64,000 nt of DNA from Candidatus Latescibacterota bacterium. Its GTDB lineage: Bacteria; Latescibacterota; UBA2968; UBA8231. Where the stretch lies: assembly GCA_965217585.1 (NCBI GenBank), contig OZ244561.1, positions 2,592,001-2,656,000 on the forward strand. The letters run 5' to 3'. Shown here piece by piece: positions 2,098 to 55,817 of the stretch (the first letter of the stretch is position 1; each line of letters opens with the position of its first letter). A program made the position numbers and the translations under genes. A model generated the notes under the pieces. It was not told where the DNA came from, searched no databases, and worked only from the letters and a program-made list of their open reading frames with translations.

Positions 2098-2196
2098 TGG
2101 CGGGAACGTGTGGGAATCGAACCCACCCAGCGCAACTTTCGCTACGCCGCAACGGATTTGAAGTCCGCGACAGCCACCAGGCACGCATCCGCTCCC
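2098..2196 (-). tRNA. selC: tRNA-Sec (UCA)
   Basis: Reverse complement GGGAGCGG...GCGGA-CTTCAAA-TCCGT, long variable arm, GTGGG-TTCGATT-CCCAC, ending GCCA. Confidence 0.95.
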
Positions 2197-8478: not shown

Positions 8479-8553
8479 TGGCAGCCCGGCGAGGACTCGA
8501 ACCTCGATAAACGGAACCAAAATCCGTTGTCCTACCAGTTGAACGACCGGGCT
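8479..8553 (-). tRNA. tRNA-Gln (UUG)
   Basis: AGCCCGG/CCGGGCT acceptor, ACGGA-TTTTGGT-TCCGT anticodon arm, CGAGG-TTCGAGT-CCTCG, GCCA end. Confidence 0.95.
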
Positions 8554-27842: not shown

Positions 27843-28819
27843 ACGTGAGTTCGGGTTAAGCGGCCTCTACTTGGCGTGGTCCATCGTTTTTTAGGGCTGG
27901 TTTTTTGGGTTGGTGGCAATAGGCAATTAATCCGCCGATGAGATGGACCATAAAATTGACCGGGCTGCGATGTCTGGTGTGTTCAATCTGGGCGATATTT
28001 TTGAGTTGATCGATGATGGTTTCGATCAGGGCTCGTTTGCGCAGCAGGAGCTTGTCCGCCATCGGCATGAGTTGATTTTTCATGTTGGATCGCAGCTTGG
28101 TAATCAACTGGAGGTCGAATAGCTCTTTCAATTGTTTGCCCAGCTTGTTGGAAAGGTATCCTCGGTCGGCAACCAGCTTGCCAAACAGGTCGCGCACCAA
28201 GCCGGGTACGGGTTTGCGATCATCGACGTTGGCTGGGGTTAGCGCCAAGTTGAGCAATTGACCTCGATTATTGAAGACCAGATGCAGCTTGAACCCGAAA
28301 AACCAACCGGTCGAACTTCGGCCCCATTGGGCTAGCCCCGCAAAGAGTCGGTGCTGGTGTCTACGATGGGGATTACATATGGCCAACGGCGTCGAGTCAA
28401 TAAACGAAATACCCGTGCAGGCTCCTTGGCATTGACGTAGATAGGCGCATAACGGAATAAGCGCCGAAGGGATTAACTCGACAAAGCGTCCATAACTGAC
28501 TAACCGGGGAAAAGCACCGCGTAGGTGCCTACAGACACGATGCTGGTAGAAGGCTTTGAACGTGCGGTACTGGGACTGGTGAAACCAAATAAACAGCGTC
28601 ATGATCTCGCTCAAACAGAGTTGACCAGCACGACGACGACGGTGACCGGTCGTTACTTGGTGGCGTATCCACTGGGCCTCAAAGGCTTGGCAAAAGTCAT
28701 CGACGTGGCAAAACAATTCGACTAAATTCATCGCGAGGGCTCCTCGATGGCTGAGCTTTATGGTCGGCATACCTAAGTTTAGCCAAAAAGGAGTCCCTCA
28801 CCTTAACCCGAACTCACGT
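27843..28819 (-). mobile_element. Intact IS982-family insertion sequence (977 bp)
   Basis: Perfect 18-bp inverted repeats ACGTGAGTTCGGGTTAAG; 7-bp target duplication TAATCCA at 27836-27842 and 28820-28826. Confidence 0.95.
27856..28731 (-). CDS. IS982-family transposase
   Basis: LFCHVDDF, FIDSTPL, GWFFGFKLH, ADRGY, RALIET, IEHTRHRS. Confidence 0.95.
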   Translation of the reverse strand: MNLVELFCHVDDFCQAFEAQWIRHQVTTGHRRRRAGQLCLSEIMTLFIWFHQSQYRTFKAFYQHRVCRHLRGAFPRLVSYGRFVELIPSALIPLCAYLRQCQGACTGISFIDSTPLAICNPHRRHQHRLFAGLAQWGRSSTGWFFGFKLHLVFNNRGQLLNLALTPANVDDRKPVPGLVRDLFGKLVADRGYLSNKLGKQLKELFDLQLITKLRSNMKNQLMPMADKLLLRKRALIETIIDQLKNIAQIEHTRHRSPVNFMVHLIGGLIAYCHQPKKPALKNDGPRQVEAA

Positions 28820-28844: not shown

Positions 28845-29378
28845 TCAATTAGGCGGCTTTAAATCCCAAGTCGCTATAATGCCCATTATCGTATTCCACT
28901 GTGTGTCGTTCATCGCCTCTACTAGAGAGAGTAGGCCCAACACATCGCGTTCCTTCTGTTTCTTGCGCGCCCGGGCAACTGCCTCTAACCACGATTGATC
29001 CCCGAGCAGAGCCAAGATTTCTGGATTGGAGAGTACCCCCAAGAGGGCTGGGTCCAAAGGCTCTTCGCTAGACAGGAGCTTATTGACCACCGGATCCGAC
29101 AGCGAGCGCATCATCTTGCCATAGAGCGCGCGTCCTTCCTCCGAGCTCGCCTTGGCCTCATAAGCAGCAAGCAACACCCTGTTAGAGTCGAGTTCCAATA
29201 CCTCGGCCAGCTTGATACATACTTCGTCGGAAGGAACCTTCTCCCCCTTTTCAATTTGTCCTATATAGGTTGCCCATACGCCCTTGGGCCTTCGCGCCGT
29301 CACAAGTTGCGTGGCCAAGCCCTGCTGGCTCAGGTGAGCTTGTAGCCGGGCCTCCTTGATCATTTCTGCAAACTGCAT
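28845..29378 (-). CDS. XRE-family HTH transcriptional regulator
   Basis: IKEARLQAHLSQQGLA..YIGQIEKGEKVPS..KLAEVLE; GAGGG RBS. Confidence 0.88.
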   Translation of the reverse strand: MQFAEMIKEARLQAHLSQQGLATQLVTARRPKGVWATYIGQIEKGEKVPSDEVCIKLAEVLELDSNRVLLAAYEAKASSEEGRALYGKMMRSLSDPVVNKLLSSEEPLDPALLGVLSNPEILALLGDQSWLEAVARARKKQKERDVLGLLSLVEAMNDTQWNTIMGIIATWDLKPPN

Positions 29379-29419: not shown

Positions 29420-29448
29420 AATATACACACACACCAGTAAGTGTGCAA
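29420..29448 (-). promoter_or_regulatory. Sigma-70 promoter for the XRE gene, overlapped by an ACAC-N8-GTGT palindrome
   Basis: Minus strand TTGCAC-N17-TATATT; palindrome at 29429-29444. Confidence 0.6.
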
Positions 29449-29485: not shown

Positions 29486-29514
29486 TTGACAACACAATCT
29501 AGCGTGTGTATTTT
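29486..29514 (+). promoter_or_regulatory. Sigma-70 promoter for the ncRNA, with an ACAC-N8-GTGT palindrome in the spacer
   Basis: TTGACA-N17-TATTTT; palindrome at 29492-29507. Confidence 0.7.
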
Positions 29515-29524
29515 AATTTCTAAA

Positions 29525-29694
29525 TAGAGTGTGGTGGTCCTCTGGTGTGGCCAATGTCCTGATCCGCGAAGCTCGGATTTCCCTTTTCGGGTCGTTGAGA
29601 TCTTCAAAACTACCTCCCCACACCGCCTCGTTTGAGGATCTCACTTGCGTTTCAAGATCACACCATTTGGCCGCCACATGGCCGCCACACTCTA
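29525..29694 (+). ncRNA. Candidate structured ncRNA of about 170 nt (novel sRNA or divergent 6S RNA)
   Basis: Terminal stem TAGAGTGTGGTGGTC/GGCCGCCACACTCTA; 13-bp apical stem 29596-29608/29631-29643; bounded by a promoter and terminator; no credible ORF. Confidence 0.65.
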
Positions 29695-29701
29695 AATGAG
29701 T

Positions 29702-29733
29702 AAGCAGTCCATTTCTATATGGGCTGCTTTTTT
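29702..29733 (+). terminator. Rho-independent terminator
   Basis: AAGCAGTCCAT-loop-ATGGGCTGCTT followed by a T run. Confidence 0.85.
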
Positions 29734-29771
29734 ATTTTTATTTTTTATACCGGTTCCTTTCTTTATACGCC

Positions 29772-30887
29772 ATGCGTATCTGTATGGTCGCCTTCACCGA
29801 CCTGAATTTCGACTACCGCATCTACCGAGAGGCATCTTCGCTGCGCCGTGATGGGCACCAAGTCGTCATTGTCGCCTCCTCGTTCAATTCAGCCCCTCTT
29901 AAGGGATGGGACGATTTTGAAATCTATCCGATTCCGCTAGACCGAAGCCGATCATTGCGCCTTCTCTATCCTTTGTTTTGGCAACGAGCCTATCCACTGA
30001 TGGTCGAGACCCAGCCGGATGCCTATCACGCCCACGACCTAGACTCTCTCTGGCCAGCAGTGCGAGCTGCACAGCGACTAAATCGGCCTATCGTCTACGA
30101 CGCGCACGAATTTTGGACCGAACAATCCTCACTGGTCAACAGACCGCTGATACGGTCCTGCTGGAGTTTGCTGGAGCGGCGGCTGATACGTCGGGTAGAT
30201 CGCATCATAACCGTCAGTGGGTCTATCGCCCAATCACTCAAGGAGCGTTACCGCCTTGACGAAGTTGTTGTTCTGCGCAATCTGCCGCTATTCCGCCATA
30301 AGGTCCAAAGCAACCTGATACGCGAAACGCTGGACCTGCCCGATGAGCGCCCTATTGTGCTCTACCAAGGAGGATTCCTCACCGAAAATGGCTTGCGAGA
30401 GCAAATTGAGGCCGCCGCTGGGTTTGCCGCCGCTTTAGTTCTGATTGGGGATGGGCCTAGCGAACAGGCCCTGCGGAACCAAGTCCGCGCTGAGAGGCTA
30501 GAGGATCGGGTCTATTTTATTCCCCGGGTGCCCTTTCACCAACTTCACAATTATACTTGCTCCGCCGACTTGGGGCTGTGTCTGATCAAAGGCACGGGCA
30601 AGAGCTTCTACTACTCTCTGCCCAACAAGCTCTTCGAATATATGATGGCCGGGCTACCGGTCCTAGCCAGCAACTTTCCTGAAATGCAGCGCGTCGTCCG
30701 CGAAACGCGTACCGGAGCTACGGTCGATCCAACCGATATAGCTGCCATTCGAGAGCAGATCACCACTTTTTTGGACAATGCAGAGCAGCGAGAGGCATGT
30801 GCCAAGGCGAGTTTGCAGGCGGCACGGCGCTATAACTGGGAACGGGAAGCCGCTCAACTCACCCAGCTTTACACAGCCCTAGCATGA
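29772..30887 (+). CDS. GT4-family glycosyltransferase
   Basis: HAHD, YDAHE, SLPNKLFEYMMAGLPV. Confidence 0.93.
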   Translation: MRICMVAFTDLNFDYRIYREASSLRRDGHQVVIVASSFNSAPLKGWDDFEIYPIPLDRSRSLRLLYPLFWQRAYPLMVETQPDAYHAHDLDSLWPAVRAAQRLNRPIVYDAHEFWTEQSSLVNRPLIRSCWSLLERRLIRRVDRIITVSGSIAQSLKERYRLDEVVVLRNLPLFRHKVQSNLIRETLDLPDERPIVLYQGGFLTENGLREQIEAAAGFAAALVLIGDGPSEQALRNQVRAERLEDRVYFIPRVPFHQLHNYTCSADLGLCLIKGTGKSFYYSLPNKLFEYMMAGLPVLASNFPEMQRVVRETRTGATVDPTDIAAIREQITTFLDNAEQREACAKASLQAARRYNWEREAAQLTQLYTALA

Positions 30888-31855
30888 GTACCCCGCTGGC
30901 GCTCTGCGTCGTAATGCCTACCTATGGCGAGCCTGAGCGCCTCGAAGCAGCACTTAAGAGCCTATCCCAGCAAGATTATCCTCACGAGGCGATCCAAATC
31001 ATCGTGGTGGACGACGCCTCCCCCCACTTGGACGCCGAGCGACTGCATGCGGCGGTCGCGCCTTTACAATTGCGGCTGCTTCGCAACGAACAGAATCAGG
31101 GACGCGCCCGGGCGCGCAACGCAGCACTTCGGGTTGCCAGCGGCGATCTCGTCGTCTTTCTCGACAGCGACATGACCGTCGGCACGAGTTTTCTCCGCGC
31201 TCATGCCCAACGGCATCAAAACCATGCGGAAGCCGTTTTTATCGGCAACATCCGCTTTGCCAGTGAAATTCCCACTACGTCCCTGACCCGCTATCTCGAA
31301 GGGAGGGGGGTCCACAGGCTTGACGCGGATAAGCCCATACCTTTCAAGTGCTTCGTCACCGGCAACTCCTCGGTTCGCCGGTCGTCCCTGCTCCGCGTGG
31401 GTTTTTTCGACGAAGATCTCACTGCTTATGGCGGCGAAGACCTAGAATTGGGGTACCGCCTCCATTTGGCGGGTATCCCGCTTTACTATGCCCCTGAAGC
31501 CCTATCCTACCACTATCACTTGCGTTCATTGGAGCCGCTCTGCCGTCTTATGCAAACCTATGGCAGCAAGTCCATCCCCATCCTTTTACACAAGCATCCC
31601 GAACTTGACGCCGTACTCCGGTTGGACTTTATCTGGGCCTCTGGACTTTCTCTTCGGCGGCTCGCGCTCCAGCTAGCCCTGTTGTCTCCGATTCACTATC
31701 CAATCCGCTGGTTGACCCGCTGGCTTGTGAAAAGCTATGTCCCGGATCTGGTCTTTAGTTATTTATTTTGGTCCAGCCGCACTCGGGGTTATCTACAGGC
31801 GATTGCCCATTCAAAGGCGATTGCTAATCACCTAGTAGCCTCTGTAAAAGAATAA
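30884..31855 (+). CDS. GT2-family glycosyltransferase
   Basis: VVMPTY, VVDDAS, FLDSD, GGEDLELGYRL. Confidence 0.93.
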   Translation: MSTPLALCVVMPTYGEPERLEAALKSLSQQDYPHEAIQIIVVDDASPHLDAERLHAAVAPLQLRLLRNEQNQGRARARNAALRVASGDLVVFLDSDMTVGTSFLRAHAQRHQNHAEAVFIGNIRFASEIPTTSLTRYLEGRGVHRLDADKPIPFKCFVTGNSSVRRSSLLRVGFFDEDLTAYGGEDLELGYRLHLAGIPLYYAPEALSYHYHLRSLEPLCRLMQTYGSKSIPILLHKHPELDAVLRLDFIWASGLSLRRLALQLALLSPIHYPIRWLTRWLVKSYVPDLVFSYLFWSSRTRGYLQAIAHSKAIANHLVASVKE

Positions 31856-31897: not shown

Positions 31898-32728
31898 ATG
31901 CATGCTCACTATCCTCGATTCTCCCAGATTCTCCGCGTAGCCCTACCTGCTCTCCTGCTGGCCCACTTCGTGGTTTGGCCCGTCGTCGGCCTCTTGTCCC
32001 TACATGCTGGTATTATTGCCGCCGAATGTACCATTCTGTGGTTTGTGGCCCTTTATATCCGCCGTCACCACCTAATCGCCGAAGATCTGCTGCTGTTCAA
32101 CGCCACGCCAGCTAGGACCCTGTTGCTGACAATCCCGGTGACTATTTGCTGTAGCCTCGTAGTCGCCGAATTCGACTTGTATCTGGCCTATCTGCTCGGC
32201 CGGATAGACCTATCTATGCCGCTGTCCTTTCAGAAGAACTTGCTGGAGATTCAGATTCTCCACGAACTGGCGGACGTCCCGAAGGGACTGGTAACACTGG
32301 TGCTAGCCCCTGTGTTTTGCGAAGAGCCTCTCTTCCGCGGGCTTGTACTCACTAGTCTTTACGCCCATTATGGACCGCGCTGGGCACTAGGCGGTTCGGC
32401 CCTGCTCTTCGCCATTTCGCACTTCAACCCTTGGCAACTGATCCCCCTCTTCCTCTTTGGACTCTTCCTCGGTGCTTTAGTCTATTGGACTCACAGCGTC
32501 TATCCTGCCATGCTCGCCCACGCGGTCAACAACTTGGCTTCGATAACTGGGATCAACTTGCGCACTTACTTAGGCATAGATGGCATAGGCCCCTCCCAGC
32601 ATCTCCCCATGCCCTTGGCCCTGCTCGCCGGCCTAATCCTGATTGGCGGCCTCCTGCTTCTCAGCCGCCAACCCGCCATTATGCCGCTGCTGACTAAGAG
32701 GGAATGCTCGCCGTCCGATTATACTTAA
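31898..32728 (+). CDS. CPBP/Abi-family intramembrane glutamic endopeptidase
   Basis: EEPLFRG, FAISH, HAVNN. Confidence 0.9.
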   Translation: MHAHYPRFSQILRVALPALLLAHFVVWPVVGLLSLHAGIIAAECTILWFVALYIRRHHLIAEDLLLFNATPARTLLLTIPVTICCSLVVAEFDLYLAYLLGRIDLSMPLSFQKNLLEIQILHELADVPKGLVTLVLAPVFCEEPLFRGLVLTSLYAHYGPRWALGGSALLFAISHFNPWQLIPLFLFGLFLGALVYWTHSVYPAMLAHAVNNLASITGINLRTYLGIDGIGPSQHLPMPLALLAGLILIGGLLLLSRQPAIMPLLTKRECSPSDYT

Positions 32729-38192: not shown

Positions 38193-40043
38193 TCACTTGG
38201 TTTCTTCCGGGGCCAATACCCCCCAATACATATCTTGGTCTCCGAGCACTTCTACAGCCTTCGCTAGCTGCACATCCTCCTGCAATTCTGCAAGGAGTTG
38301 GGCCTTTCTTCCCCTGAAACGCAAGACTAGTTCTCGACGTAAAGCACTCTTTATATAAGGCGATAACTTGCTGCTATACCGCTGCTCCCATTCCTGTCCC
38401 ACCGCTACTCGTAGTTGATGAAGCGACTCCTGTGCCGCCGTACCCCAATCCATTTCCTCCGCCAAGTCCTCAAGTTCTTCTATTTTACTCAACCCTTTCT
38501 GGCCTTGATTCAGACTTCCGTCCTTAGTGCGGACGAATTTCATAAAGCTATTAACCATCTCATCGCTGACGGTCAAGCCAGGATGTTCCGCTGCCCAAGA
38601 AGAGTCTGCTGATACATAATCTATGACAAAGTCAAAGAAGAGCCGGCGACGCTCTAATTCTTGTACGTAAGGGGGAAATGGCTCCGGATCAATACTAATA
38701 TCTGGCTTAATACCGCCGCCGCCGAAGACTTTGCGCCCTTGCTGAGTATAATAGGTTCGGTTTGCAATACTGTCCGGCAATCCGTCCGCTCCTATCTTGG
38801 ATTTACCCACCAAGTCGCCCAAACGGATCAAGAGTATGCTCTCTGCGGACTCAGAATTCATATCAAAGTGAGATTGGAGCGCAGAAAGGGCCTTAGCCCT
38901 ATTCCCTGAACGCAAAACGAGGTCCATCACTAGCTGATGAGGCAGTTCTCTATCGCCGAACAGAACGCGATGCACCGGCCTAGCTATATTCTGTTCGCGG
39001 TGAATACTACGCCCACTTGGCGCGTAGTAGAGTGCCGTCGTCAGCTTCAGAGCACTAGACGCCTCTTCGGGTAGGTCGAATATGGTCTGTACTGAACCTT
39101 TGCCAAATGATGCCCCTCCTACAATCACTCCTCGATCGTTGTCTTGGATGGCTCCAGCAACGATTTCGGATGCGCTGGCGCTCCCCTCGTCAATCAGAAC
39201 TACCAAGGGTATATCTCGCGCAATAGAGGGACGGTGGGAATACTTGATTTCTTCTCTCCGCCCTTCGCGTTCCTTAATAGAAACGATCGGCACCCCTTGG
39301 GGTAAAAACAAATCCGCAACTTGGGTGGCTTGACTAAACAAGCCCCCTGGATTTCCTCGCAGATCTAAAATTAGCCCTTCAACCCGAGGGAGGCTTTTTA
39401 GCGCCTCTTCTACTTCACTGGAGGTATGCTCGGAAAAACGCGTCCGGCGCATACTTATATAACCGATTTTGCCTCTGAGCTCCTCTACCAGCACAACGCT
39501 CTTGATCCTGATAATTTCCCTTTGAATCTCAACTTCGCGCGGCGTTGCTCCCAAGTGGGTGGCGACCGAGATTGCAACCTTTGTGCCAGGGTCCCCGCGC
39601 AGCGCATTGACCACACACTCAAGCTGCATATCCAAGGTACTTTTACCCTCGACGGCGACGATCAAGTCGCCCGGCCTCAGCCCCGCCCGAAAGGCAGGAG
39701 TATCCTCAATAGGGGAAATTACCACAGGGAAACGATCTTTTATGGCAACCGTAATCCCCAACCCCGCGAACTTGCCCGTCGTGTCTTGGCGCAACTGGCG
39801 CAAAGCTTCCTCGTCGAAGTACTCGCTGTATGGATCGAGTTGGCCGAGCAGGCCCTTGATGGCTGCGCTCATAACTTCCTCTTGGTCCAGACGGGCGTAA
39901 TAATTTTCCAGAATGCGCGAATACACTGCTCCGAAACGCTCCCAACTGGCATTTACCTCAGCATACGGATCTTCCGTAGTCACAGCATGGATTGCGCCCC
40001 CACTTGCAAACAAAAAAATCAATCCCACTAAGATGTGTCTCAT
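38193..40043 (-). CDS. S41A carboxy-terminal processing protease (PDZ) with a helical insert
   Basis: LDPYS, GLGI, DLRGNPGG, SASASEI, FGKGSVQ; signal peptide. Confidence 0.93.
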   Translation of the reverse strand: MRHILVGLIFLFASGGAIHAVTTEDPYAEVNASWERFGAVYSRILENYYARLDQEEVMSAAIKGLLGQLDPYSEYFDEEALRQLRQDTTGKFAGLGITVAIKDRFPVVISPIEDTPAFRAGLRPGDLIVAVEGKSTLDMQLECVVNALRGDPGTKVAISVATHLGATPREVEIQREIIRIKSVVLVEELRGKIGYISMRRTRFSEHTSSEVEEALKSLPRVEGLILDLRGNPGGLFSQATQVADLFLPQGVPIVSIKEREGRREEIKYSHRPSIARDIPLVVLIDEGSASASEIVAGAIQDNDRGVIVGGASFGKGSVQTIFDLPEEASSALKLTTALYYAPSGRSIHREQNIARPVHRVLFGDRELPHQLVMDLVLRSGNRAKALSALQSHFDMNSESAESILLIRLGDLVGKSKIGADGLPDSIANRTYYTQQGRKVFGGGGIKPDISIDPEPFPPYVQELERRRLFFDFVIDYVSADSSWAAEHPGLTVSDEMVNSFMKFVRTKDGSLNQGQKGLSKIEELEDLAEEMDWGTAAQESLHQLRVAVGQEWEQRYSSKLSPYIKSALRRELVLRFRGRKAQLLAELQEDVQLAKAVEVLGDQDMYWGVLAPEETK

Positions 40044-40045
40044 GG

Positions 40046-40726
40046 TTACTTTTTCTCCTCGGGAAACCACGGCAACCGCTCGCGGAGTGCGTTCCGAATC
40101 TCTTTGGCCAGTTGGTCTATTCCGAGCTGTGCGTCAAAAACCAAGGCTGCCTGGTCTTTCTTGGCGATCTTTTTGTAGCCTTGGGCGACTTTCCTTTGTA
40201 GTTGCTCTCCGCCGGCTTCCTCCAAGCGATCCTCGGCGCGAGGAGAGAATGAATCCCCCTGTCTAAATAAATCCCCCTGTCGATCTATCCGCGCCCAAGT
40301 CACTTCTACGGATAAGTCCAAATATACTGTCAATTCCGGCAAGCATTCCCCTACTGCTAGACTATTGACTTGCTCGACCATTTTTAGATTCAAGCCGCGC
40401 CCATAACCCTGATAAGCTAGCGATGATGCGATATAGCGATCACAAATAACTACCTTCCCTTGATCTAGCGACGGCTGAATTACCTCTTCTACATGCTGTG
40501 CACGGTCAGCCCCATAGAGGAAAAGCTCCGCCACATGGGAGATGGCCTCCTGTCTTGGGTCGAGAACAAGACGGCGAATCCGCTCTCCAATCGGCGTCCC
40601 GCCTGGCTCTCTGGTAAGTGTAACCGGAAGACCCGTTCCCCTTAAGTACGACGCCAGCAGGCGGGATTGGGTTGTAGTTCCACTCCCATCAATTCCTTCA
40701 AAAACAATGAAATGACCCTGGGACAC
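40046..40726 (-). CDS. tmk: Thymidylate kinase
   Basis: FEGIDGSGTTT, TREPGG, CDRY..SSLAYQG; GTG start inferred. Confidence 0.93.
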   Translation of the reverse strand: MSQGHFIVFEGIDGSGTTTQSRLLASYLRGTGLPVTLTREPGGTPIGERIRRLVLDPRQEAISHVAELFLYGADRAQHVEEVIQPSLDQGKVVICDRYIASSLAYQGYGRGLNLKMVEQVNSLAVGECLPELTVYLDLSVEVTWARIDRQGDLFRQGDSFSPRAEDRLEEAGGEQLQRKVAQGYKKIAKKDQAALVFDAQLGIDQLAKEIRNALRERLPWFPEEKK

Positions 40727-40772
40727 GACAGGAGGAGAATCGCAGTAAAGTCCGATTAGCCCCTTATCAGGA

Positions 40773-41477
40773 CTACTGGACTGAGGCGGGCGAATTGGCA
40801 CCAGATTTCAGCCTATTGCGGATATGAGCGAGGCGCTCAACAACCGTATAGTTGGTCGTAACGGCCAATAAAACCAGCACAAAAACCAACCCTTGATGGC
40901 CCATCAGGCTCCCCACGGCCAAGGCAATTAGACGTTCCGGGCGCTGCATAAAGCCCACCTTACAATCCTCGCCCAGCCCCTCTGCACGAGCCCTTACATA
41001 ACTAACCATCAGCGAACCAGTAATTGCAAAAAAGAGGATCCCCGAGGGAATCCACTCATCGCGGCCAATCAAATACGCGCCGATTCCAAAATAAATAAAT
41101 ATCTCAGAGTATCGATCTGTTGTCGAATCCAATAAGGCTCCGAACTTGGTCTCCTTGTGGCCTTCTCTTGCAACTTGTCCATCCAAGATATCGCAGAGAC
41201 CGGCAGCCATCATAATGAGAGCCCCCCATTGTAAATAACCTCGGGCAAAAGCCGCAGTGGCTCCCACGTTCATAACTAACCCCATCAGCGTCAGCCAATC
41301 AGGTCTGAAGCCCAAGCGAATAAACAAACGCGCCAACGGTCTAAGGATGACCAAACACCACTTTTTCAGATATTTATCTAGCAAAAAAGAACCTATTTGT
41401 AGAGGTAGGAGGCCATTGAGAGCCAGTATCCTCGATAACCAAGGGAAAATATACGTTGTTTTTTTAGTTTTTTCCAA
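40773..41477 (-). CDS. CDP-alcohol phosphatidyltransferase
   Basis: DILDGQVAR..FGALLDSTTDR, SYVRARAE; the true start is probably downstream of 41477. Confidence 0.9.
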   Translation of the reverse strand: MEKTKKTTYIFPWLSRILALNGLLPLQIGSFLLDKYLKKWCLVILRPLARLFIRLGFRPDWLTLMGLVMNVGATAAFARGYLQWGALIMMAAGLCDILDGQVAREGHKETKFGALLDSTTDRYSEIFIYFGIGAYLIGRDEWIPSGILFFAITGSLMVSYVRARAEGLGEDCKVGFMQRPERLIALAVGSLMGHQGLVFVLVLLAVTTNYTVVERLAHIRNRLKSGANSPASVQ

Positions 41478-41494
41478 AAGATTTTACCTTAGAG

Positions 41495-41652
41495 TTTTCC
41501 ACACTCTCACGAGCAAGTTTTCCACATTACACCTTATCGACTCTACTCAATACTTCCCTAAATCGAAACCTATCTATTGGCTAAAATTAGACATATAAGC
41601 CTAAAAAAGACCCTAAACCCCGTAGTTTCTTCTTATTGTGACTTGTGGATAA
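41495..41652. promoter_or_regulatory. Secondary DnaA-box cluster
   Basis: TTTTCCACA at 41495 and 41518; TGTGGATAA at 41644; AT-rich intergenic DNA. Confidence 0.7.
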
Positions 41653-41721
41653 GCGTGGGTAAAACTGATCTCGGAATGCCCAATCCCTTTGGACCTACGA
41701 GACCCTGCTGAGCTATCAATG

Positions 41722-42339
41722 CTAGCAATTAGTGGCGTGAAATAGCCCTAATGCACTCCCGACTCGATCCGTCCTCCATGCCAACAACCCCGAATGGGCA
41801 GCATCTTCTCCAAGTGTTGAAAGAATCCAACCGTGAGGAGACAAATGTCTTTGTACTAAATTAAGCAGTTTCTCTGGAGGGGCCACTGCTCTCGCAGTGA
41901 CCAAATCAGCTCCTACAGGACTCAAATTCTCTATCCGCTCGTTTACAACTTCGATGCGGTCAAGCTCCACGGACCTTACAACCTCCTTGAGAAAGTGAGC
42001 CCGCTTCCTCCTGCTTTCGACGAGAATAAAGTATGAATCGGGAAGAGCGATTTTCAATGGAATAGCTGGAAATCCAGCTCCTGATCCTAGATCCATAACC
42101 AGCCGACGAGGGATACTTGCTACAACCGGGACCATAGTCAACGCCTGTCTCAAGTGCTTGGTTGCTACGATGGACAAATCTCGCCGAGAGACAAGACTGA
42201 CTCTTCTCGACCACCGACTCAAGAGATATAGATATATTTCCAGCTTGGGCCAGACATCTTCAAAAGAACAAGATAGATCTCTTTTTCTTTTTAACCGCTC
42301 AAAGTCCTCACGAATCTCGGATGGCAGTTGAATTACCAT
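41722..42339 (-). CDS. rsmG: 16S rRNA m7G527 methyltransferase
   Basis: DLGSGAGFPAIPL, ESRRKR, TARAV. Confidence 0.93.
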   Translation of the reverse strand: MVIQLPSEIREDFERLKRKRDLSCSFEDVWPKLEIYLYLLSRWSRRVSLVSRRDLSIVATKHLRQALTMVPVVASIPRRLVMDLGSGAGFPAIPLKIALPDSYFILVESRRKRAHFLKEVVRSVELDRIEVVNERIENLSPVGADLVTARAVAPPEKLLNLVQRHLSPHGWILSTLGEDAAHSGLLAWRTDRVGSALGLFHATNC

Positions 42340-42348
42340 ATCAAAACA

Positions 42349-42364
42349 TGTTTCACGTGGAACA
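42349..42364. promoter_or_regulatory. parS site
   Basis: TGTTTCACGTGGAACA. Confidence 0.9.
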
Positions 42365-42421
42365 CTCGCGTTGTCTCAATACGGCACGGAAGATTTCATG
42401 GGCATCGTGATAAGACCTCCA

Positions 42422-42437
42422 TGTTTCACGTGAAACA
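42422..42437. promoter_or_regulatory. parS site (perfect palindrome)
   Basis: TGTTTCACGTGAAACA. Confidence 0.93.
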
Positions 42438-43799
42438 TTACTTGCCGATGCAAAATTGGGAGAAAATGGAATCAAGTACTTCCTCCTCTATTGTCTCTCC
42501 CAGCATCTCTCCTAGGGCATTCAAGGCGTCTTGGAGTTCGGCTACGACGCACTCATCGGGCTGGCTGGACCTCAGAAGCTCCTCTGCTACAGCACCGGAT
42601 TTAGCTACCCGCAAGAGGCAATCTTGGTGGCGTTGACGGGTGATCCCGATTCCATCTATTTCCCCTCTCTGGGGCAATAGGGCTGTCACTTCCCTCTTTA
42701 ACTCTTCAATACCGAACTCCCTAAGTGCTGATATTTCAACGGATACCGAGGCCCGTACTTCGATCTTAGATCTACTACTAATGACTGGCAAATCAACCTT
42801 GTTGAAGACAGCAATTGACTTCTTATCAGCCGGAAGCAGGTCCAACACAGCCATATCGTCCTCACACGACTCAGCCGAGCTGTCGAATACCGCTAAAACC
42901 ACGTCAGCTTCCCCAACCGCCTGAGACGCCCGTTCAATTCCCTCTTTTTCGATCAGGTTATGGCTTTGCCTAATCCCAGCCGTATCGACCAGTCGTATCG
43001 TCTCTCCTTCCCATGTGGTCCGACCTTCCACTAAATCTCGAGTCGTTCCTGGTAAGGGAGTGACTATTGCCCGGTCTTCACCGAGCAACACGTTGAGCAA
43101 TGTGGACTTACCTACGTTGGGACGCCCGATAAGCACTACTAAATATCCTTCTTGACGTCGCCTTGTTCCCTCGAATGTTTCGGCAAGCCGCAAAGAGGAC
43201 TCAACTACCTCACGCAGCGCGATCTGTATTTCTTGACGCCCAATACCATCGATGTCCTCGTCGGAAAAATCGAGCCCGATTTCGAGCAGTGATAGCATCT
43301 CAACCAATTTCCTCTTAAGCTCTTTCACCATCTTAGATAGACGGCCACTGGCCAAGCCATAGGCATTATCGAGATGCGCTTTAGAGCTGGCCTGGATGAG
43401 GTCGATTACAGCCTCAGCCTCTAATAAGTCCAACTGGCCATTGAGAAAAGCTCGACGGGTAAACTCACCTGGGGCGGCGGCGGCGGCACCCAAGCTAATC
43501 GCTTCCTCGACGACTGACTCTAATACGACTGTACTGCCGTGGCAGCTAATCTCGACTGTATCTTCACCGGTGTAAGAGTGAGGAGCTGCAAAGACCCAAG
43601 CGACTCCGGTGTCGATTTCCCGACCGCCAGCCCATATACGCCCGTATTCGACGTATCGGACTCGCTTACCGAGTGGTGGATGGGACCGAAAAATCTGCTG
43701 GCTAATAGACAAGGCTTCAGGCCCACTCAAACGCACTATCCCAATTCCCCCCTCCCCCCGTGGCGTAGAGATCGCGACAACAGTATCGGTCTGTATCAA
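42438..43799 (-). CDS. mnmE: tRNA modification GTPase MnmE
   Basis: DTVVAISTP, GEFTRRAFLNG, GRPNVGKS, DTAG, FCIGK. Confidence 0.97.
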   Translation of the reverse strand: MIQTDTVVAISTPRGEGGIGIVRLSGPEALSISQQIFRSHPPLGKRVRYVEYGRIWAGGREIDTGVAWVFAAPHSYTGEDTVEISCHGSTVVLESVVEEAISLGAAAAAPGEFTRRAFLNGQLDLLEAEAVIDLIQASSKAHLDNAYGLASGRLSKMVKELKRKLVEMLSLLEIGLDFSDEDIDGIGRQEIQIALREVVESSLRLAETFEGTRRRQEGYLVVLIGRPNVGKSTLLNVLLGEDRAIVTPLPGTTRDLVEGRTTWEGETIRLVDTAGIRQSHNLIEKEGIERASQAVGEADVVLAVFDSSAESCEDDMAVLDLLPADKKSIAVFNKVDLPVISSRSKIEVRASVSVEISALREFGIEELKREVTALLPQRGEIDGIGITRQRHQDCLLRVAKSGAVAEELLRSSQPDECVVAELQDALNALGEMLGETIEEEVLDSIFSQFCIGK

Positions 43800-43821
43800 G
43801 GAATCGAGATCCGGCTGAAAT

Positions 43822-45534
43822 TCAAGTGCTGGAAGGAGTGGCTTCTTTCTTAAAATGATTGACCAATAGCTGTTGGCCAATCGTCAGGACGTTGAAGATA
43901 GTCCAGTAGAGTACTAATCCCGATGACATGCTCCAAAAGATAAAAATCATCACTGCTGGCATCATGTAAACCAGAACGGCCTGTTTGGGATCCTTCATAG
44001 TCATCTTCTGTTGGATAAGCATGGAGACAGCCATTAATAATGGCAGAACATGAAGACCGAAACCGCCGATTAGCAACTCGTCAGGAAGGGAGAGATCTTG
44101 TATCCAAAGAGTAAAAGGCGCTTGGCGCAACTCGATTGTTTTGCCAAAAAGATTGTAGAGCGAAATGAAAATAGGCATTTGCAACAAGAGCGGCAGACAC
44201 CCCCCAAGAGGATTGACGCCTTCTTCTTTATAGAGCTTCATGGTTTCGCGGCTCAGGCGTTGGTTGTCGTTCTTGTACTTCTCGCGTAGTGCGGTAATTT
44301 TCGGCTGAATCGCCTGCATTTTCGCCGCAGACTCATACGTTTTGTGCGTGAGCGGATAGACGATAATTTTGATGACAACGGCGAAAAGGACGATGATCCA
44401 CCCATAGTTGGGGATGTATTGATGGGTCGCGATAAATAGAATGAGCAGAAAGCGGCTTATCTGACTTACGATTGGCCATCCGAAATCAATAGCCTGCTCT
44501 AGTTCGGCCTCATAGCCGATGAGCTCGTCGTAGTTGAGTGGGCCCAGATAAACCGTGTTGTGCCAAGAACCAGACCGTTCGAGCCGGCGACCTATCTGAA
44601 AAGAATAGTCGGGTAGCAAATTCGACCCTTGGTGGTTGCCCTGTAAGACGACGAGAGAACGCTGCTCTCTATCGGCGGGGACGCAGGAAATCAAGAAGTA
44701 CTTGTTGCGAATACCCGCCCATTTTAGCAACCCTTTGTCCTCCAACTCGTCCGATTCCCCATCGTCTACCTTGAGTTCGACCCGTTCTTCGTTGATATAG
44801 GCAAAAGCCCGCATTTCAGGTAGGTCAATTTCCGGCTCACGCTCGGTAAACGCTATGCCGTTTTCCCAAGTGAGTATGGCTTCGGTATCGTCGTCAAACC
44901 CTTCGTGGCGCACCTGGAGATCGAATCCATAACGATCCCCATTAAAGGTCAAGACCTTTTCCAGTCTCCTGCCGCCACCGAGTTGGGCTACCATGATTAG
45001 GGATTGCTCTTCCCCGGGTCCAACCTGCAGACTCGACAGGTTGGCAACAAACTCCGCCGAGGAGATATCCTCCCTGTAGTTTGCTCTTTGTAGATGAATT
45101 CCCAAGCCGCTGCCGGCTGGAGGCAGCAGTTCGATAGTACTTCCATCTACATCTCTGTATTTTAATAGTTTACACGATGTAATAGTGCCGCCCTTTGTAG
45201 AGATAACAAAGCTTTGAAGCGGAGTTTGTACTACAATTTCTTCCGAGATAAAGGACGGACTTTCGGCCGATTCGACCCTTTCAATGCCCTGAGACCGAAC
45301 GGGTGCTGGCCCTTCCGTATGGAGCTGTTCTGCAGGCTCGGGATCTCGTATGGGCTCGGCTTCAAATTGCTCTTCAGCAACAGGGTCCGTTTCAGGGCTC
45401 GGCTTTTGCGGCATGGATTCCTGAGACGGAGACTCGGGCTTAGGATTTAGCCCCATCCATTCATTATAATAGGGAAGCAAAAGGAAAATCAAGCCGATGA
45501 CGAGAAAGGCCAACAGGGTCCGCTTATCTTCCAT
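43822..45534 (-). CDS. yidC: Membrane protein insertase YidC
   Basis: NYGWII, GVNPLGGCLPLLLQMP, WIQDLS, GLVLYW. Confidence 0.97.
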   Translation of the reverse strand: MEDKRTLLAFLVIGLIFLLLPYYNEWMGLNPKPESPSQESMPQKPSPETDPVAEEQFEAEPIRDPEPAEQLHTEGPAPVRSQGIERVESAESPSFISEEIVVQTPLQSFVISTKGGTITSCKLLKYRDVDGSTIELLPPAGSGLGIHLQRANYREDISSAEFVANLSSLQVGPGEEQSLIMVAQLGGGRRLEKVLTFNGDRYGFDLQVRHEGFDDDTEAILTWENGIAFTEREPEIDLPEMRAFAYINEERVELKVDDGESDELEDKGLLKWAGIRNKYFLISCVPADREQRSLVVLQGNHQGSNLLPDYSFQIGRRLERSGSWHNTVYLGPLNYDELIGYEAELEQAIDFGWPIVSQISRFLLILFIATHQYIPNYGWIIVLFAVVIKIIVYPLTHKTYESAAKMQAIQPKITALREKYKNDNQRLSRETMKLYKEEGVNPLGGCLPLLLQMPIFISLYNLFGKTIELRQAPFTLWIQDLSLPDELLIGGFGLHVLPLLMAVSMLIQQKMTMKDPKQAVLVYMMPAVMIFIFWSMSSGLVLYWTIFNVLTIGQQLLVNHFKKEATPSST

Positions 45535-45579
45535 AGGTTTTACTTACCCTTTTATAAACAACGTGTTATTAACATGCTA

Positions 45580-45789
45580 CTAGCGCAAAGGATCGTACCC
45601 ATGCCCTCCCCAAGGATGGCAACGACTAATCCGCTTTAGCGCAAGCATCCCGCCTTTGAGTGTCCCGTACTTATCTAGTGCTTCTTCGGCATATTGGGAA
45701 CAAGTAGGTTGATAACGACAGGATGGAGGAAGGTATGGAGACAGGAGAAGACGGTAGGCTCGGACGACGAAAAGGACGATTTGCTTCAT
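45580..45789 (-). CDS. yidD: Membrane protein insertion efficiency factor
   Basis: CRYQPTCSQY..RISRCHPW..GYDP. Confidence 0.95.
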   Translation of the reverse strand: MKQIVLFVVRAYRLLLSPYLPPSCRYQPTCSQYAEEALDKYGTLKGGMLALKRISRCHPWGGHGYDPLR

Positions 45790-46046
45790 AGTGGGACGAG
45801 ATTTGCTACCAAGGAGTCCAGTTCCCTTTCCAAGTCAGCAAAGGGAGCTTCAACGGCTGACGGTTGGCAGAAAACGACCAGATTGCGAGGAAAGTACGGA
45901 TGGCTGCGGCAAATGCTGCGCAGGCGCCGCTTGAGTCGGTTGCGCTTTACAGCATTGCCCAGCTTGCGGCGGACGACAAATATTTGACCGCGATCTTCCC
46001 GACCGCAGCGGATCCAAAAGCAACGGCCTCTAACCCAGGCCATCAA
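45786..46046 (-). CDS. rnpA: RNase P protein, N-terminally short
   Basis: RKLGNAVKRNRLKRRLR; lies between rpmH and yidD. Confidence 0.88.
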   Translation of the reverse strand: MMAWVRGRCFWIRCGREDRGQIFVVRRKLGNAVKRNRLKRRLRSICRSHPYFPRNLVVFCQPSAVEAPFADLERELDSLVANLVPL

Positions 46047-46049
46047 ACG

Positions 46050-46184
46050 CTAGACTGCTAGCTGCTTGCGGCCCTTCCGACGACGACGATTGATTATATT
46101 GCGACCGGCTGGAGTGCTCATGCGCTTGCGAAAACCGTGCTTGTTGCGGCGGCGCCTGTTGCTAGGCTGAAAAGTGCGTTTCAA
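46050..46184 (-). CDS. rpmH: 50S ribosomal protein L34
   Basis: TTG start, [21 protein letters not shown]. Confidence 0.97.
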
Positions 46185-46320
46185 AATAAAATTTTCACCT
46201 CGCGTTAGTTTATGCGCAGTATACGCAAAATAGTTCAATTTAGTGGCTATTCTAATTGGTGTCAATACTTTTAACTCTTTGAACGCTAACGAATTTTAAC
46301 GGCAACCCCGAGGGAGACTC

Positions 46321-46349
46321 TTGACTGCCATACGCCTTCTTTATAGGTT
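46321..46349 (+). promoter_or_regulatory. Putative dnaA promoter, possibly giving a leaderless mRNA
   Basis: TTGACT-N17-TAGGTT, then 6 nt to the ATG; no SD. Confidence 0.55.
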
Positions 46350-46355
46350 GAAAAA

Positions 46356-47744
46356 ATGGCACTGAAAATACAAGATCCCCAAGAACTCTGGGCTCAATGT
46401 CTGCTCAATATCGAGCGTCAGGTTCGTCCCCAAAGTTTTGCTAATTGGTTTCTCCAGACTTCAGTAAACCACTTCGACGAAAACTCGTTGGTCATCCAAG
46501 TTCCCAGTGCATTTTCCGCCGCTTGGGTAGAGGAGCACTACTTGCAGATGATCCAATCAGTAGTACGGGAAGAGACAGCGCTGACTCCAAAGATCTCTTT
46601 TGTCGTTGCACAAGCACCCCAACCAGCTCTCGATCAAGTACTCCCTATCCCTGCTCCTGAAGAAGAATCCACAGAAGACGAACAAGAAGAAGTAGAAGCC
46701 GGTCCCGCTCAAATATCGCTCAACCAGCGCTATACCTTTGAAGAATTCATCATTGGCGATAGCAATCAAATTGCCCTTGCAACGGCCTTAGCCGTAGCTA
46801 ATGCCCCAGGTAAGACGGAATTTAATCCCCTCGTGATTTATGGCGGTGCCGGGCTAGGTAAAACACATCTGCTCCAAGCGATTGGGCATCACGCTCATAG
46901 CCTCAACCTAGCTAAGAAGGTCGTTTTCGTCACCTCGGAAAAATTTATGGGCGATTTCGTCCAAGCGCTCGCTCAAGGCCGCGATAAGACGAGTGAGTTT
47001 AAGAATTTCTACCGCAGCGCGGATATCCTCCTTGTCGACGACATCCAGTTTCTGCTCCACGGCGAACGGACCCAAAACGAATTTTTTCACACCTTTAATG
47101 CCTTGCACCAGTCCGAGAAGCAGATTGTCATGACCTGTGACAGTCCTCCTGGCCATCTTGATGGGTTAGAAGAAAGGCTGAAATCCCGCTTCATATGGGG
47201 TTTGGCCACCGCAATAAATCCGCCTGAGCTCGAGACTCGGATCGCCATCCTCCACAAAAAGGCCGAGCGCAACGGTATCCGGATTCCCAATGATGTGGCC
47301 GCTCTTTTGGGGAATTATATCCGATCGAATGTCCGCGAACTTGAAGGTACGTTGATTAGCTTGATGGCCTACTGCTCAATCCATAAGAAGGAACTCGACA
47401 TCGAGGCGGCCAAGCATATTCTAGATGAATTGGGGCCCAGCCCATCGGAACTGAGCATTGAGGCGATCCAGCAGCAGGTCGCTGACCACTTTAACCTGAC
47501 TCAGGAGCAACTCACTGGAAAAGGACGCAAGCAAGAAGTTGTAGCAGCACGGCACCTTGCTATGTTCCTAATCAAGCGTCTAATCGGCAGTCATTTCACT
47601 ACCATTGGCCTGCACTTCGGCAACCGCGATCACAGCTCAATCATCCACGCTGTACGCACTGTTGAGAAGAGGTGTAAAAACGATCCCGCCTTCGCCAGAC
47701 TAGCCGAGGATTTGTCCAATACCATCCGTCGGCAAAACCGCTAA
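46356..47744 (+). CDS. dnaA: Chromosomal replication initiator DnaA
   Basis: GGAGLGKTHL, DDIQF, SNVRELEG, RDHSSIIHA. Confidence 0.98.
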   Translation: MALKIQDPQELWAQCLLNIERQVRPQSFANWFLQTSVNHFDENSLVIQVPSAFSAAWVEEHYLQMIQSVVREETALTPKISFVVAQAPQPALDQVLPIPAPEEESTEDEQEEVEAGPAQISLNQRYTFEEFIIGDSNQIALATALAVANAPGKTEFNPLVIYGGAGLGKTHLLQAIGHHAHSLNLAKKVVFVTSEKFMGDFVQALAQGRDKTSEFKNFYRSADILLVDDIQFLLHGERTQNEFFHTFNALHQSEKQIVMTCDSPPGHLDGLEERLKSRFIWGLATAINPPELETRIAILHKKAERNGIRIPNDVAALLGNYIRSNVRELEGTLISLMAYCSIHKKELDIEAAKHILDELGPSPSELSIEAIQQQVADHFNLTQEQLTGKGRKQEVVAARHLAMFLIKRLIGSHFTTIGLHFGNRDHSSIIHAVRTVEKRCKNDPAFARLAEDLSNTIRRQNR

Positions 47745-48299
47745 CCCTAAGCCCAACCCCCATCTCTTAGACCTCTTTGTCTGTATTTTTCAGAACCATA
47801 GTGCCTATTTGGCAGTGGAAAACTATTAACACCTATCCCCGTCTAAGTATTGATTCAGTGTGGATAAGTCTATAAAAAAAAGAAAACCGTCATTTTTAAC
47901 TTTCCGACTGTGAAAAACTCAAGTTTTCCACTCCACAATCCACAGACGAACTCCTGCCGCTAAATCATCCCTCTTATTTATAAACATCTTATTAACAATA
48001 TGTTTTGTTGTTTAGGGATAAATCCCTAAGACAGTTATCCACATATCCACAGCATAACTAGAACTTCAAAAGTAAAAGAACACAAAAAAGTGTAGCCTTA
48101 TTAAAAAGATAGATGTGGATTGTCCCATCTCAAACACACACACCTTTTTGTTTTTTTACACACACCTACCCATATGTTCCCTTGTATTAAAAATGAGACA
48201 CTATAAATATAATGGAACTTGACATAAGTAGGCATGAAAGCTAAGTTTATTTAAGTCTTTGAAGGACGATATTCTCAGAAGGATAATCCGAGAAGCTTT
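47745..48299. other. Replication origin oriC (dnaA-dnaN intergenic region)
   Basis: Very AT-rich; DnaA boxes TGTGGATAA (47859), TTATCCACA (48035), ATATCCACA (48043) plus weaker boxes. Confidence 0.85.
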
Positions 48300-55470: not shown

Positions 55471-55557
55471 GGAGGGTTAGACCTAATTGGTAAGGCAGCG
55501 GTCTTGAAAACCGCCGGGCTCACGCCCTTGAGGGTTCGAGTCCCTCACCCTCCGCCA
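55471..55557 (+). tRNA. tRNA-Ser (UGA)
   Basis: GCGGT-CTTGAAA-ACCGC anticodon arm, long variable arm, GCCA end. Confidence 0.95.
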
Positions 55558-55635
55558 GTTTACCATTTGATACCGCCACAATCCCATCCTTTTTAGCGGT
55601 GGGAGCACGTCAAAAGTTTATTTTGCAATGGTCGC

Positions 55636-55729
<94 letters not shown>

Positions 55730-55741
55730 ATCTGCGTTAGT

Positions 55742-55817
55742 TGCCCTCTAGCACAATTGGGAGTGCGCCTGACTCTGGATCAGGAGGTTCTAGGTTCGAG
55801 CCCTAGGAGGGCAGCCA
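55742..55817 (+). tRNA. tRNA-Gln (CUG)
   Basis: TGCCCTC/GAGGGCA acceptor, CCTGA-CTCTGGA-TCAGG anticodon arm. Confidence 0.95.

Follow-up and report, generated by a model that had tools for sequence, protein, structure and literature searches.

Transcription of the replication genes of pT181- and pIP501-type plasmids is attenuated under the control of antisense RNAs: a small RNA contacts the loop of a structured leader over a long and nearly perfect stretch, and a terminator follows before the gene. Other described systems are C-rich/G-rich pairs of a small regulatory RNA (sRNA) and its sponge, such as RoxS-RosA in Bacillus and RsaE/RsaG-RsaI in Staphylococcus, in which two independent RNAs meet through extended and conserved complementarity between C-rich loops and a G-rich stretch; RsaE and RoxS of Firmicutes are C-rich-loop sRNAs that pair with G-rich ribosome-binding sites (RBSs). 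Structured elements followed by a terminator also stand 5' of glycosyltransferase (GT) genes among riboswitch-type leader attenuators and EAR-type antitermination leaders. For Candidatus Latescibacterota, a phylum that to our knowledge has no cultured members, a full-text literature search found no paper on regulatory RNAs, a description in supplementary tables being possible. Here we describe a structured RNA gene that precedes a GT operon in a Candidatus Latescibacterota genome (assembly GCA_965217585.1), lying within a stretch of 64,000 nucleotides of contig OZ244561.1 (positions 2,592,001 to 2,656,000, hereafter the window), together with a small RNA encoded elsewhere in the same genome whose 5' part is complementary to the apical loop of the larger RNA.

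The locus shares features with each of these systems and departs from all of them. In the plasmid systems the regulator is a countertranscript, whereas here the small RNA comes from a distant locus with its own promoter, the operon is chromosomal and of polysaccharide type, and no pre-emptor helix is supported by covariation. Compared with RoxS-RosA and RsaE/RsaG-RsaI, to which the two RNAs have no sequence or Rfam relationship, the C-rich RNA is far larger, has more structure, is firmly linked to a downstream operon and carries an invariant loop of 22-24 nt. Unlike the riboswitch and EAR-type leaders, the element has no Rfam match and no supported antiterminator, and its partner is an RNA instead of a known ligand or protein. 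The proposed mechanism would be a trans-encoded counterpart of antisense-RNA-controlled attenuation.

A free-standing structured RNA gene restricted to one bacterial family

An earlier note on this DNA had drawn attention to window positions 29525-29694 (+) as a candidate novel non-coding RNA. Folded alone in ViennaRNA, this segment reaches a minimum free energy (MFE) of -71.1 kcal/mol (z = -6.42; 0 of 200 dinucleotide shuffles equal it), and its minus strand gives a weaker fold (z = -3.81). The MFE structure consists of a 15-bp closing stem, an inner GUGGCCAA/UUGGCCGC helix, a side hairpin and a 13-bp apical stem bearing a 22-nt loop, so that every structural element described earlier was recovered in its place. 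The tandem repeat near the 3' end was likewise confirmed, with TGGCCGCCACA occurring at 29668-29678 and again at 29679-29689; both the repeat and the inner helix built from its copy are specific to this genome and one relative, G001 (2 of 31 aligned homologues). In the other homologues the closing stem comprises 11-13 bp and the region of the inner helix is an internal loop. The parts kept across the homologues are the closing stem (P1), a junction helix (P2), the side hairpin (P3) and the apical stem (P4) with its loop; in the consensus fold the apical domain is a three-way junction of P2, P3 and P4 with an apical loop of 22-24 nt. The RNA gene proved to be wider than the segment first reported, reaching from 29521 to 29735 (+). 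We concluded that it is a free-standing, highly structured non-coding RNA gene, forming a complete transcription unit of about 215 nt.

The helices are supported by changes on both sides of base pairs among homologues, a check that the earlier note had proposed. A structure-blind MAFFT alignment was made with 39 of the 41 distinct sequences then collected, and the RNAalifold consensus on it contained six helices, namely P1, a short 3-bp hairpin, P2, P3, P4 and the terminator. In this alignment 98.3% of the cells pair, compared with 38-44% after a slide of the 3' partners by 1-3 columns, and 19 pairs are changed on both sides, compared with 5.2±1.7 in shuffles (0 of 500 reach this number) and 3-8 in the slid controls. 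A second alignment, guided by the model and biased towards it, took in 53 distinct sequences, among them those of the most divergent genera. In it 96.4% of cells pair and 30 of 48 pairs are changed on both sides; shuffles give 13.4±2.3 such pairs (0 of 500 reach the observed number) and the slid controls give 8-17. Certain stretches are kept by sequence and not by pairing: the GUGUGG of the 5' strand of P1, the core of the apical loop, the P3 loop UUYCCCUUUU and the GAUC(A/G)CACC motif. Three conserved unpaired segments of the RNA are C-rich.

The earlier note had further suggested that the RNA can adopt alternative pairings. These are possible in principle, since the 5' GUGUGG is able to pair with CCACAC of the loop or with UCACAC of the 3' internal-loop strand in at least 85% of the 53 distinct sequences, but covariation lends them no support. 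The candidate alternative and antiterminator helices pair in about 90% of cells, no more than sequence conservation alone gives, and pairing of the 5' GUGUGG with the loop, of the P3 3' strand with the P4 3' strand, or of the P3 5' strand with the 3' arm of the terminator does not beat shuffles. Approximately 13 of 17 substitutions in the loop hexamer keep the GUGUGG pairing; this is not clearly above the normal excess of transitions and was not used as evidence.

Expression was assessed from Logan contigs of four RNA runs (16 runs contain part of the stretch). In run X1 (study P1) the depth was 317-468 over 29529-29714 with flanks at 0, in run X4 (study P1) it was 506-1,046 over the RNA core with flanks at 0-2, and in run X2 (study P2) it rose to 166,050 over the core against 34-35 on the XRE regulator side and 51-72 on the GT side; such depths are summed over organisms and cannot rank genes, the libraries may contain DNA, and the uncovered parts of the stretch in X1 and X4 prove nothing. 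Run X7, from coral, covers core and flanks evenly and at low depth, which could reflect either DNA or read-through. A 483-nt contig of X2 spans 29658-30139, from the 3' part of the RNA through the terminator into the GT gene. Taken together, the contig depths hint at an abundant discrete RNA with some read-through. One X1 contig of 1,932 nt carries the RNA core at its very end, and the adjoining 1,760 nt have no counterpart in the window; the contig may be a chimera of the assembly, or a relative may have the RNA in another context.

The RNA is single-copy in its genome. By blastn, 28 of 30 genomes of the same genus have a match, the two without one being 58% and 77% complete, and weaker matches to the core were found in two sister genera. 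An exact-motif scan of 185,579 species-representative genomes returned 42 matches; 40 are true homologues, in records almost all titled Candidatus Latescibacterota, Latescibacteria or Gemmatimonadota metagenome-assembled genomes, and two (L040 and L068) are chance matches in coding DNA. Weak blastn matches outside the family were also seen in G040 and G050, the one in G040 being GC-rich coding sequence and spurious. When 150 genomes across the phylum were searched with a covariance model of the RNA (R1), 45 of 63 genomes in family f1 and 1 of 87 in 13 other families had a match, and the latter (G066) is a spurious 78-nt terminator-like fragment with no GT gene. Within f1, the closed or nearly closed genomes G101, G116, G139 and G126 gave no match in that search, which used stricter filters; G116 and G126 also have no orthologue of the GT4 gene that follows the RNA. 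The RNA is thus specific to one family of Candidatus Latescibacterota.

An operon downstream and a small RNA complementary to the apical loop

A gene for a GT4-family glycosyltransferase comes immediately after the RNA, on its strand, in 39 of 40 homologous loci and in 22 of 23 further model matches, the latter including the most divergent genera; the two sets overlap. The gap between terminator and GT4 measures 35-125 nt in the model-match loci. The region preceding the GT4 start is pyrimidine-rich and contains no Shine-Dalgarno (SD) sequence and no conserved promoter-like sequence. On the other side, a divergently oriented gene for an XRE-type regulator was found in 31 of 40 loci with 400-nt flanks, in 8 of 8 with 1500-nt flanks and in only 3 of 15 divergent loci, where the flanks were about 650-700 nt long. 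The RNA promoter together with an ACAC-N-GTGT palindrome in its spacer is present in 26 of 37 distinct upstream regions, a count in which 16 of 58 loci could not be placed by the script; the 11 misses all fall in divergent lineages. The XRE protein probably binds this palindrome.

A scan of the genome for complements of the apical loop gave one match of at least 14 nt outside the locus itself, 16 contiguous bases at about position 1,586,162 of the genome, where the composition-adjusted expectation for the whole genome is 0.10. The match is intergenic, flanked by genes for a sugar epimerase/dehydratase and a glucose-6-phosphate dehydrogenase. It begins about 10 nt past a TATATT box, runs directly into a 13-pair terminator with a T run, and forms the single-stranded 5' part of the resulting unit of about 55 nt. 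This 5' seed includes SD-like GGGAGG/GGGGGG. The best Rfam match at the small-RNA locus, at E 0.13, is below threshold and assigns no family. In this genome and most of the genus the terminator of the small RNA ends about 15 nt before the start of the glucose-6-phosphate dehydrogenase gene, for which the small RNA could also act as a leader.

The small-RNA unit is kept in 24 of 24 genomes of the genus sampled; a divergent subgroup has another promoter and other neighbouring genes but shares the transcribed part. A covariance model (R2) was built from 21 of 25 sequences and strongly matches all 30 genomes of the genus. From other genera 33 candidates were fetched, and by eye 18 were judged genuine and 15 spurious (7 of the 20 in the first batch were spurious). 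The genuine ones show a TTGACA-17-TAnnnT promoter, the seed and a terminator, and they come from genera g20 (7), g24 (4), g18 (2), g3 (2), g4, g17 and g7, so that the small RNA is known in 8 genera, its own included. Eight weak candidates in g19 and g6 turned out to be coding sequence or unrelated terminators. In g1 and g20 the small RNA can form a 5' hairpin (CUCACAC/GUGUGGG), but this hairpin is not retained in g24, g18 or g3, and therefore a kissing-loop start of the interaction is not claimed. Two further motifs accompany the unit. A AACGCATTATGCGTT-type palindrome, which may be the site of a different regulator, abuts the TTGACA box in g20 and a subgroup of g1 (L143-L147, L177 and L208-L211), and a conserved TTGCTCGGAACCGG-like motif directly follows the terminator in g24, g18, g3 and g17 (L181-L187, L189 and L207).

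The predicted duplex between seed and loop was tabulated for 19 genomes that contain both RNAs, 5 of the genus and 14 others. In all 19 it comprises 17-20 bp, with a free energy (dG) of -33.8 to -42.7 kcal/mol, compared with means of -15.0 to -22.4 and a best value of -35.3 kcal/mol for shuffled loops. It extends 1-3 bases into the A/U-rich top of the 3' strand of P4. Both genomes of genus g3 have CGUCUCG in the loop in place of CGCCUCG, and GAGACGG in the small RNA in place of GAGGCGG, so that a C-G pair is replaced by U-A. Single changes compatible with wobble pairing were found in the loop of G118 (A>G) and in the seed of G098 (C>U).

The C-rich loop had been read in the earlier note as a possible anti-SD element. 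The genome has a G+C content of 59.5% and a canonical anti-SD tail (CCUCC), and an SD-like tetramer precedes 37% of first ATGs compared with 11% of internal ATGs. Complements of the loop at the level of 12-mers gave 25 matches against about 15 expected, mostly inside open reading frames (ORFs) and with no enrichment in start regions; neither the apical nor the P3 loop is more complementary to the start regions of the XRE and GT4 genes than shuffles are. Complement scans of this kind cannot judge short pairing of SD length. Together with the match described above, these scans suggest that the apical loop is a docking site for a dedicated small RNA and no general anti-SD. The features of the locus are collected in Table 1.

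Table 1. Predicted features of the RNA locus, its operon and the partner small RNA; coordinates are those of the window except for the small RNA
Feature	Position	Strand	Description
XRE-type helix-turn-helix regulator gene	28845..29378	-	Pfam HTH_3/HTH_31; divergent from RNA gene; start codon from tblastn alignments
XRE promoter-like site	29420..29447	-	Consensus scan; overlaps CACAC...GTGTG palindrome 29428-29445, conserved in genus
Sigma-70-like promoter of the RNA	29486..29514	+	TTGACA-17 nt-TATTTT; ends ~7-10 nt before closing stem; same box in homologues
Operator-like palindrome ACAC-N-GTGT in promoter spacer	29492..29509	.	Sequence reading and regular-expression count
Whole RNA	29521..29735	+	Predicted start to T run; ~215 nt here, ~205 nt in relatives; basis: promoter and terminator positions, R1 match, RNA-library contigs over 29529-29714; ends predicted
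P1, 5' strand	29525..29539	+	GUGUGG invariant in 53 distinct sequences
Internal loop, 5' strand	29540..29564	+	Variable; carries GCGUG(G/A)C motif
P2, 5' strand	29565..29569	+	Partner 29645-29649; double-sided change in 4/5 pairs
P3 side hairpin	29571..29592	+	C-rich conserved loop UUYCCCUUUU
P4 apical stem and loop	29596..29643	+	12-13 bp; double-sided change in 10/12 pairs
Apical loop, proposed small-RNA docking site	29609..29630	+	Core identical in 41/53 distinct sequences
P2, 3' strand	29645..29649	+	
Internal loop, 3' strand	29650..29667	+	Conserved GAUC(A/G)CACC at 29656-29664
11-nt tandem duplication, 2 copies	29668..29689	+	Only this genome and G001
P1, 3' strand	29680..29694	+	
Intrinsic terminator	29702..29735	+	11-bp stem 29702-29729, then T run; begins 8 nt past closing stem; double-sided change in 9/10 pairs
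GT4-family glycosyltransferase gene	29772..30887	+	Pfam; starts 36 nt past T run
GT2-family glycosyltransferase gene	30884..31855	+	Pfam; overlaps GT4 stop
CPBP/CAAX-type intramembrane protease gene	31898..32728	+	Pfam Rce1-like; last same-strand gene before strand switch
Partner small RNA	~1,586,150-1,586,208 of genome G000 (locus L122 1551-1609), outside window		~55 nt

Possible roles of the two RNAs

The reading we place first, while giving it somewhat less than even weight, is that the large RNA is a leader or attenuator that is controlled by, or titrates, the dedicated small RNA. It is ranked first because the large RNA keeps its neighbours across genera and the small RNA does not do so even within the genus, and because no promoter lies between the terminator and the GT gene. 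As in a leader, the RNA stands 5' of the gene on the same strand without an intervening promoter, and an intrinsic terminator separates the two. In the mechanism that we propose, the RNA would be transcribed from its own sigma-70-type promoter, whose spacer palindrome may be bound by the divergently encoded XRE regulator. Most transcripts would stop at the intrinsic terminator, and read-through would supply the mRNA of the GT4, GT2 and CPBP genes, a source that is suggested because a promoter is missing and one contig bridges the terminator. The 5' seed of the small RNA would pair in the cell with 17-20 nt made up of the loop and the first bases of the P4 3' strand. This pairing would open the A/U-rich top of P4 and refold the leader, and the refolding would set the number of polymerases that pass the terminator into the operon, with the terminated leader doubling as a sink for the small RNA. 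A bolder version, which we put forward only tentatively, is an RNA-sensing riboswitch: a leader with tertiary structure would take the small RNA as a ligand on a 22-nt receptor loop and, together with an XRE-type repressor at the promoter, would form a three-part circuit deciding on a cell-envelope glycosylation operon in sponge symbionts, in which the terminated leader buffers the level of the small RNA.

Several observations weigh against an attenuating leader governed by the small RNA. Five measures of alternative or antiterminator pairing were reached by 64, 86, 11, 217 and 384 of 500 shuffles and thus have no covariation support. The genomes G101 and G139 carry a GT4 orthologue (54-56% identity) without a detectable RNA, no R1 match at E<=1 being found upstream of either gene, and G098 has the RNA, the XRE gene and the small RNA but GT paralogues of only 32% identity, its RNA preceding an unrelated gene without a Pfam match. 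The small RNA was not found in g19, g6 and other genera that carry the large RNA with diverged loops. In genus g18 a U>A change in the seed leaves one A-A mismatch in the duplex, and the compensatory change between the two loci in g3 is a single evolutionary event. The very high abundance of the large RNA, as far as contig depths hint at it, fits a leader no better than a stable RNA that acts in trans.

Such a trans-acting RNA is the nearest competitor of the attenuator reading, a close second that is possible, if doubtful. The large RNA would use its apical and P3 loops to pair with G-rich RBSs; the small RNA would serve as decoy or sponge of the large one, or vice versa, and the link to the GT genes would reflect no more than shared transcription or shared regulation by XRE. 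That the two RNAs are independently transcribed and have extended complementarity in accessible regions fits an sRNA and its sponge, and the strong promoter and terminator of the RNA, its contig depth in RNA libraries far above that of the neighbouring genes, its three conserved C-rich unpaired segments, the use of SD sequences in a genome with a CCUCC tail, the SD-like bases of the small-RNA seed and the retention of RNA, XRE gene and small RNA in G098 without a GT4 orthologue all speak for it. The earlier suggestion of an RBS-targeting sRNA that can switch conformation holds up in so far as the genome relies on SD sequences and has the matching tail, but the sole long complement of the loop is the small RNA. 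Target prediction with the loop, as then recommended, left the start regions of the linked genes unmatched and yielded the small RNA as the only complement of at least 14 nt; long complements show no enrichment near starts. Moreover, the 22 invariant loop bases exceed what an SD seed needs, and GT synteny kept across genera at about 50% protein identity would be unusual if the function were not linked. It appears unlikely that the element is a cis leader of riboswitch-like or protein-binding type, sensing a metabolite or a protein, with the complement to the small RNA being incidental or secondary. From the promoter through a multi-helix element whose junction and loop bases are conserved to the terminator and the gene, the order is the classic one, and the same GT4 gene nearly always follows; yet the antiterminator is without support, a complement of 17-20 bp that 8 genera retain, with one compensatory change, is difficult to dismiss as incidental, and the terminated form is unusually abundant, with the reservations that apply to contig depths.

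The earlier note had offered a divergent 6S RNA, which would mimic an open promoter and sequester RNA polymerase, as its other option. Rfam 15 at gathering thresholds gave only tRNA and tRNA-Sec in the window (5 matches) and nothing at the RNA locus, and a permissive local scan gave 8 chance-level matches, none of them 6S, the best scoring 19.8 bits against a threshold of 80. Neither the 6S (RF00013) nor the 6S-Flavo (RF01685) model matched anything at E<=10, be it around the RNA or across all 7.3 Mb of the genome, whereas the same searches match 7 and 4 of 14 control genomes. With this Rfam scan, which the note had named as a check, and with the fold z score, the covariation and the RNA-library contigs, the view of the element as a real, structured and expressed non-coding RNA that is new in lying outside Rfam stands. 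6S RNAs resemble it in length (about 200 nt), in a closing stem with a large internal loop, present in most members of the new family, and in abundance, which is high in RNA libraries, and no recognisable 6S RNA was seen elsewhere in the genome. They differ by model, by distribution and by architecture: the RNA lacks the rod fold and the near-universal distribution of 6S, its apical half being a three-way junction with the invariant loop. The internal-loop strands of the L067/L118 and L115 lineages appear by eye to be complementary, and the RNA is bound to its position before the GT operon. Its spread is patchy and limited to one family, with closed genomes such as G101 and G116 lacking a match, and a housekeeping RNA therefore does not fit. 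We consider membership in the 6S family highly improbable. Scarcely any weight, finally, can be given to the view that there is no RNA feature at all and that the CACAC/GTGTG motifs are DNA sites for XRE or the region encodes a small protein (ORF 29529-29699). ACAC...GTGT palindromes are present in both divergent promoters, similar half-sites recur within the RNA gene, and a 56-codon ORF exists; however, the compensatory changes follow the helices, neither of the two short ORFs that overlap the region matches Pfam, 1-nt insertions or deletions between homologues exclude a coding frame, and the RNA-library contigs are limited to the core.

Genomic surroundings and significance

Some further observations were made around the two RNAs. 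In loci outside the main group of the genus (L026-L029, L031, L034, L039, L046, L047, L060 and L198) the conserved promoter is separated from P1 by 46-104 nt, a 5' extension that often carries, by eye, an ACACAC...GUGUGU hairpin; in the present genome a similar palindrome is located upstream of the promoter. A DDE transposase gene (DDE_Tnp_1_3, E 2e-68) lies just past the XRE gene at window 27856-28770 (-). The G+C content of window positions 40001-48000 is 49%, compared with 59.5% for the genome, and that of the RNA/GT region is 50-56%; the segment 40001-48000 could be an island of foreign or surface-polysaccharide genes. A tRNA-Sec gene was found at window 2102-2196 (-) with 70.1 bits, and the organism therefore probably uses selenocysteine. 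The other tRNA genes form a cluster of three at 55471-55814 (+) or stand singly at 8482-8553 (-).

The analysis provides a new and well-supported structured RNA family with a working covariance model, and contig depths hint that the large RNA ranks with the more abundant transcripts in these symbionts of sponges and corals. Given the small size of both RNAs, of their promoters and of the terminator, the system can be reconstructed and tested in vitro or in E. coli, and no culture of the organism is needed. If the small RNA does control termination in trans through the apical loop, antisense-type attenuation would no longer be confined to plasmids but would include chromosomal regulation by a trans-encoded RNA. 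The two RNAs form a testable pair, and the glycosyltransferase operon to which this pair is tied probably has a part in shaping the cell surface; they thereby bear on the recognition between these symbionts and their hosts.

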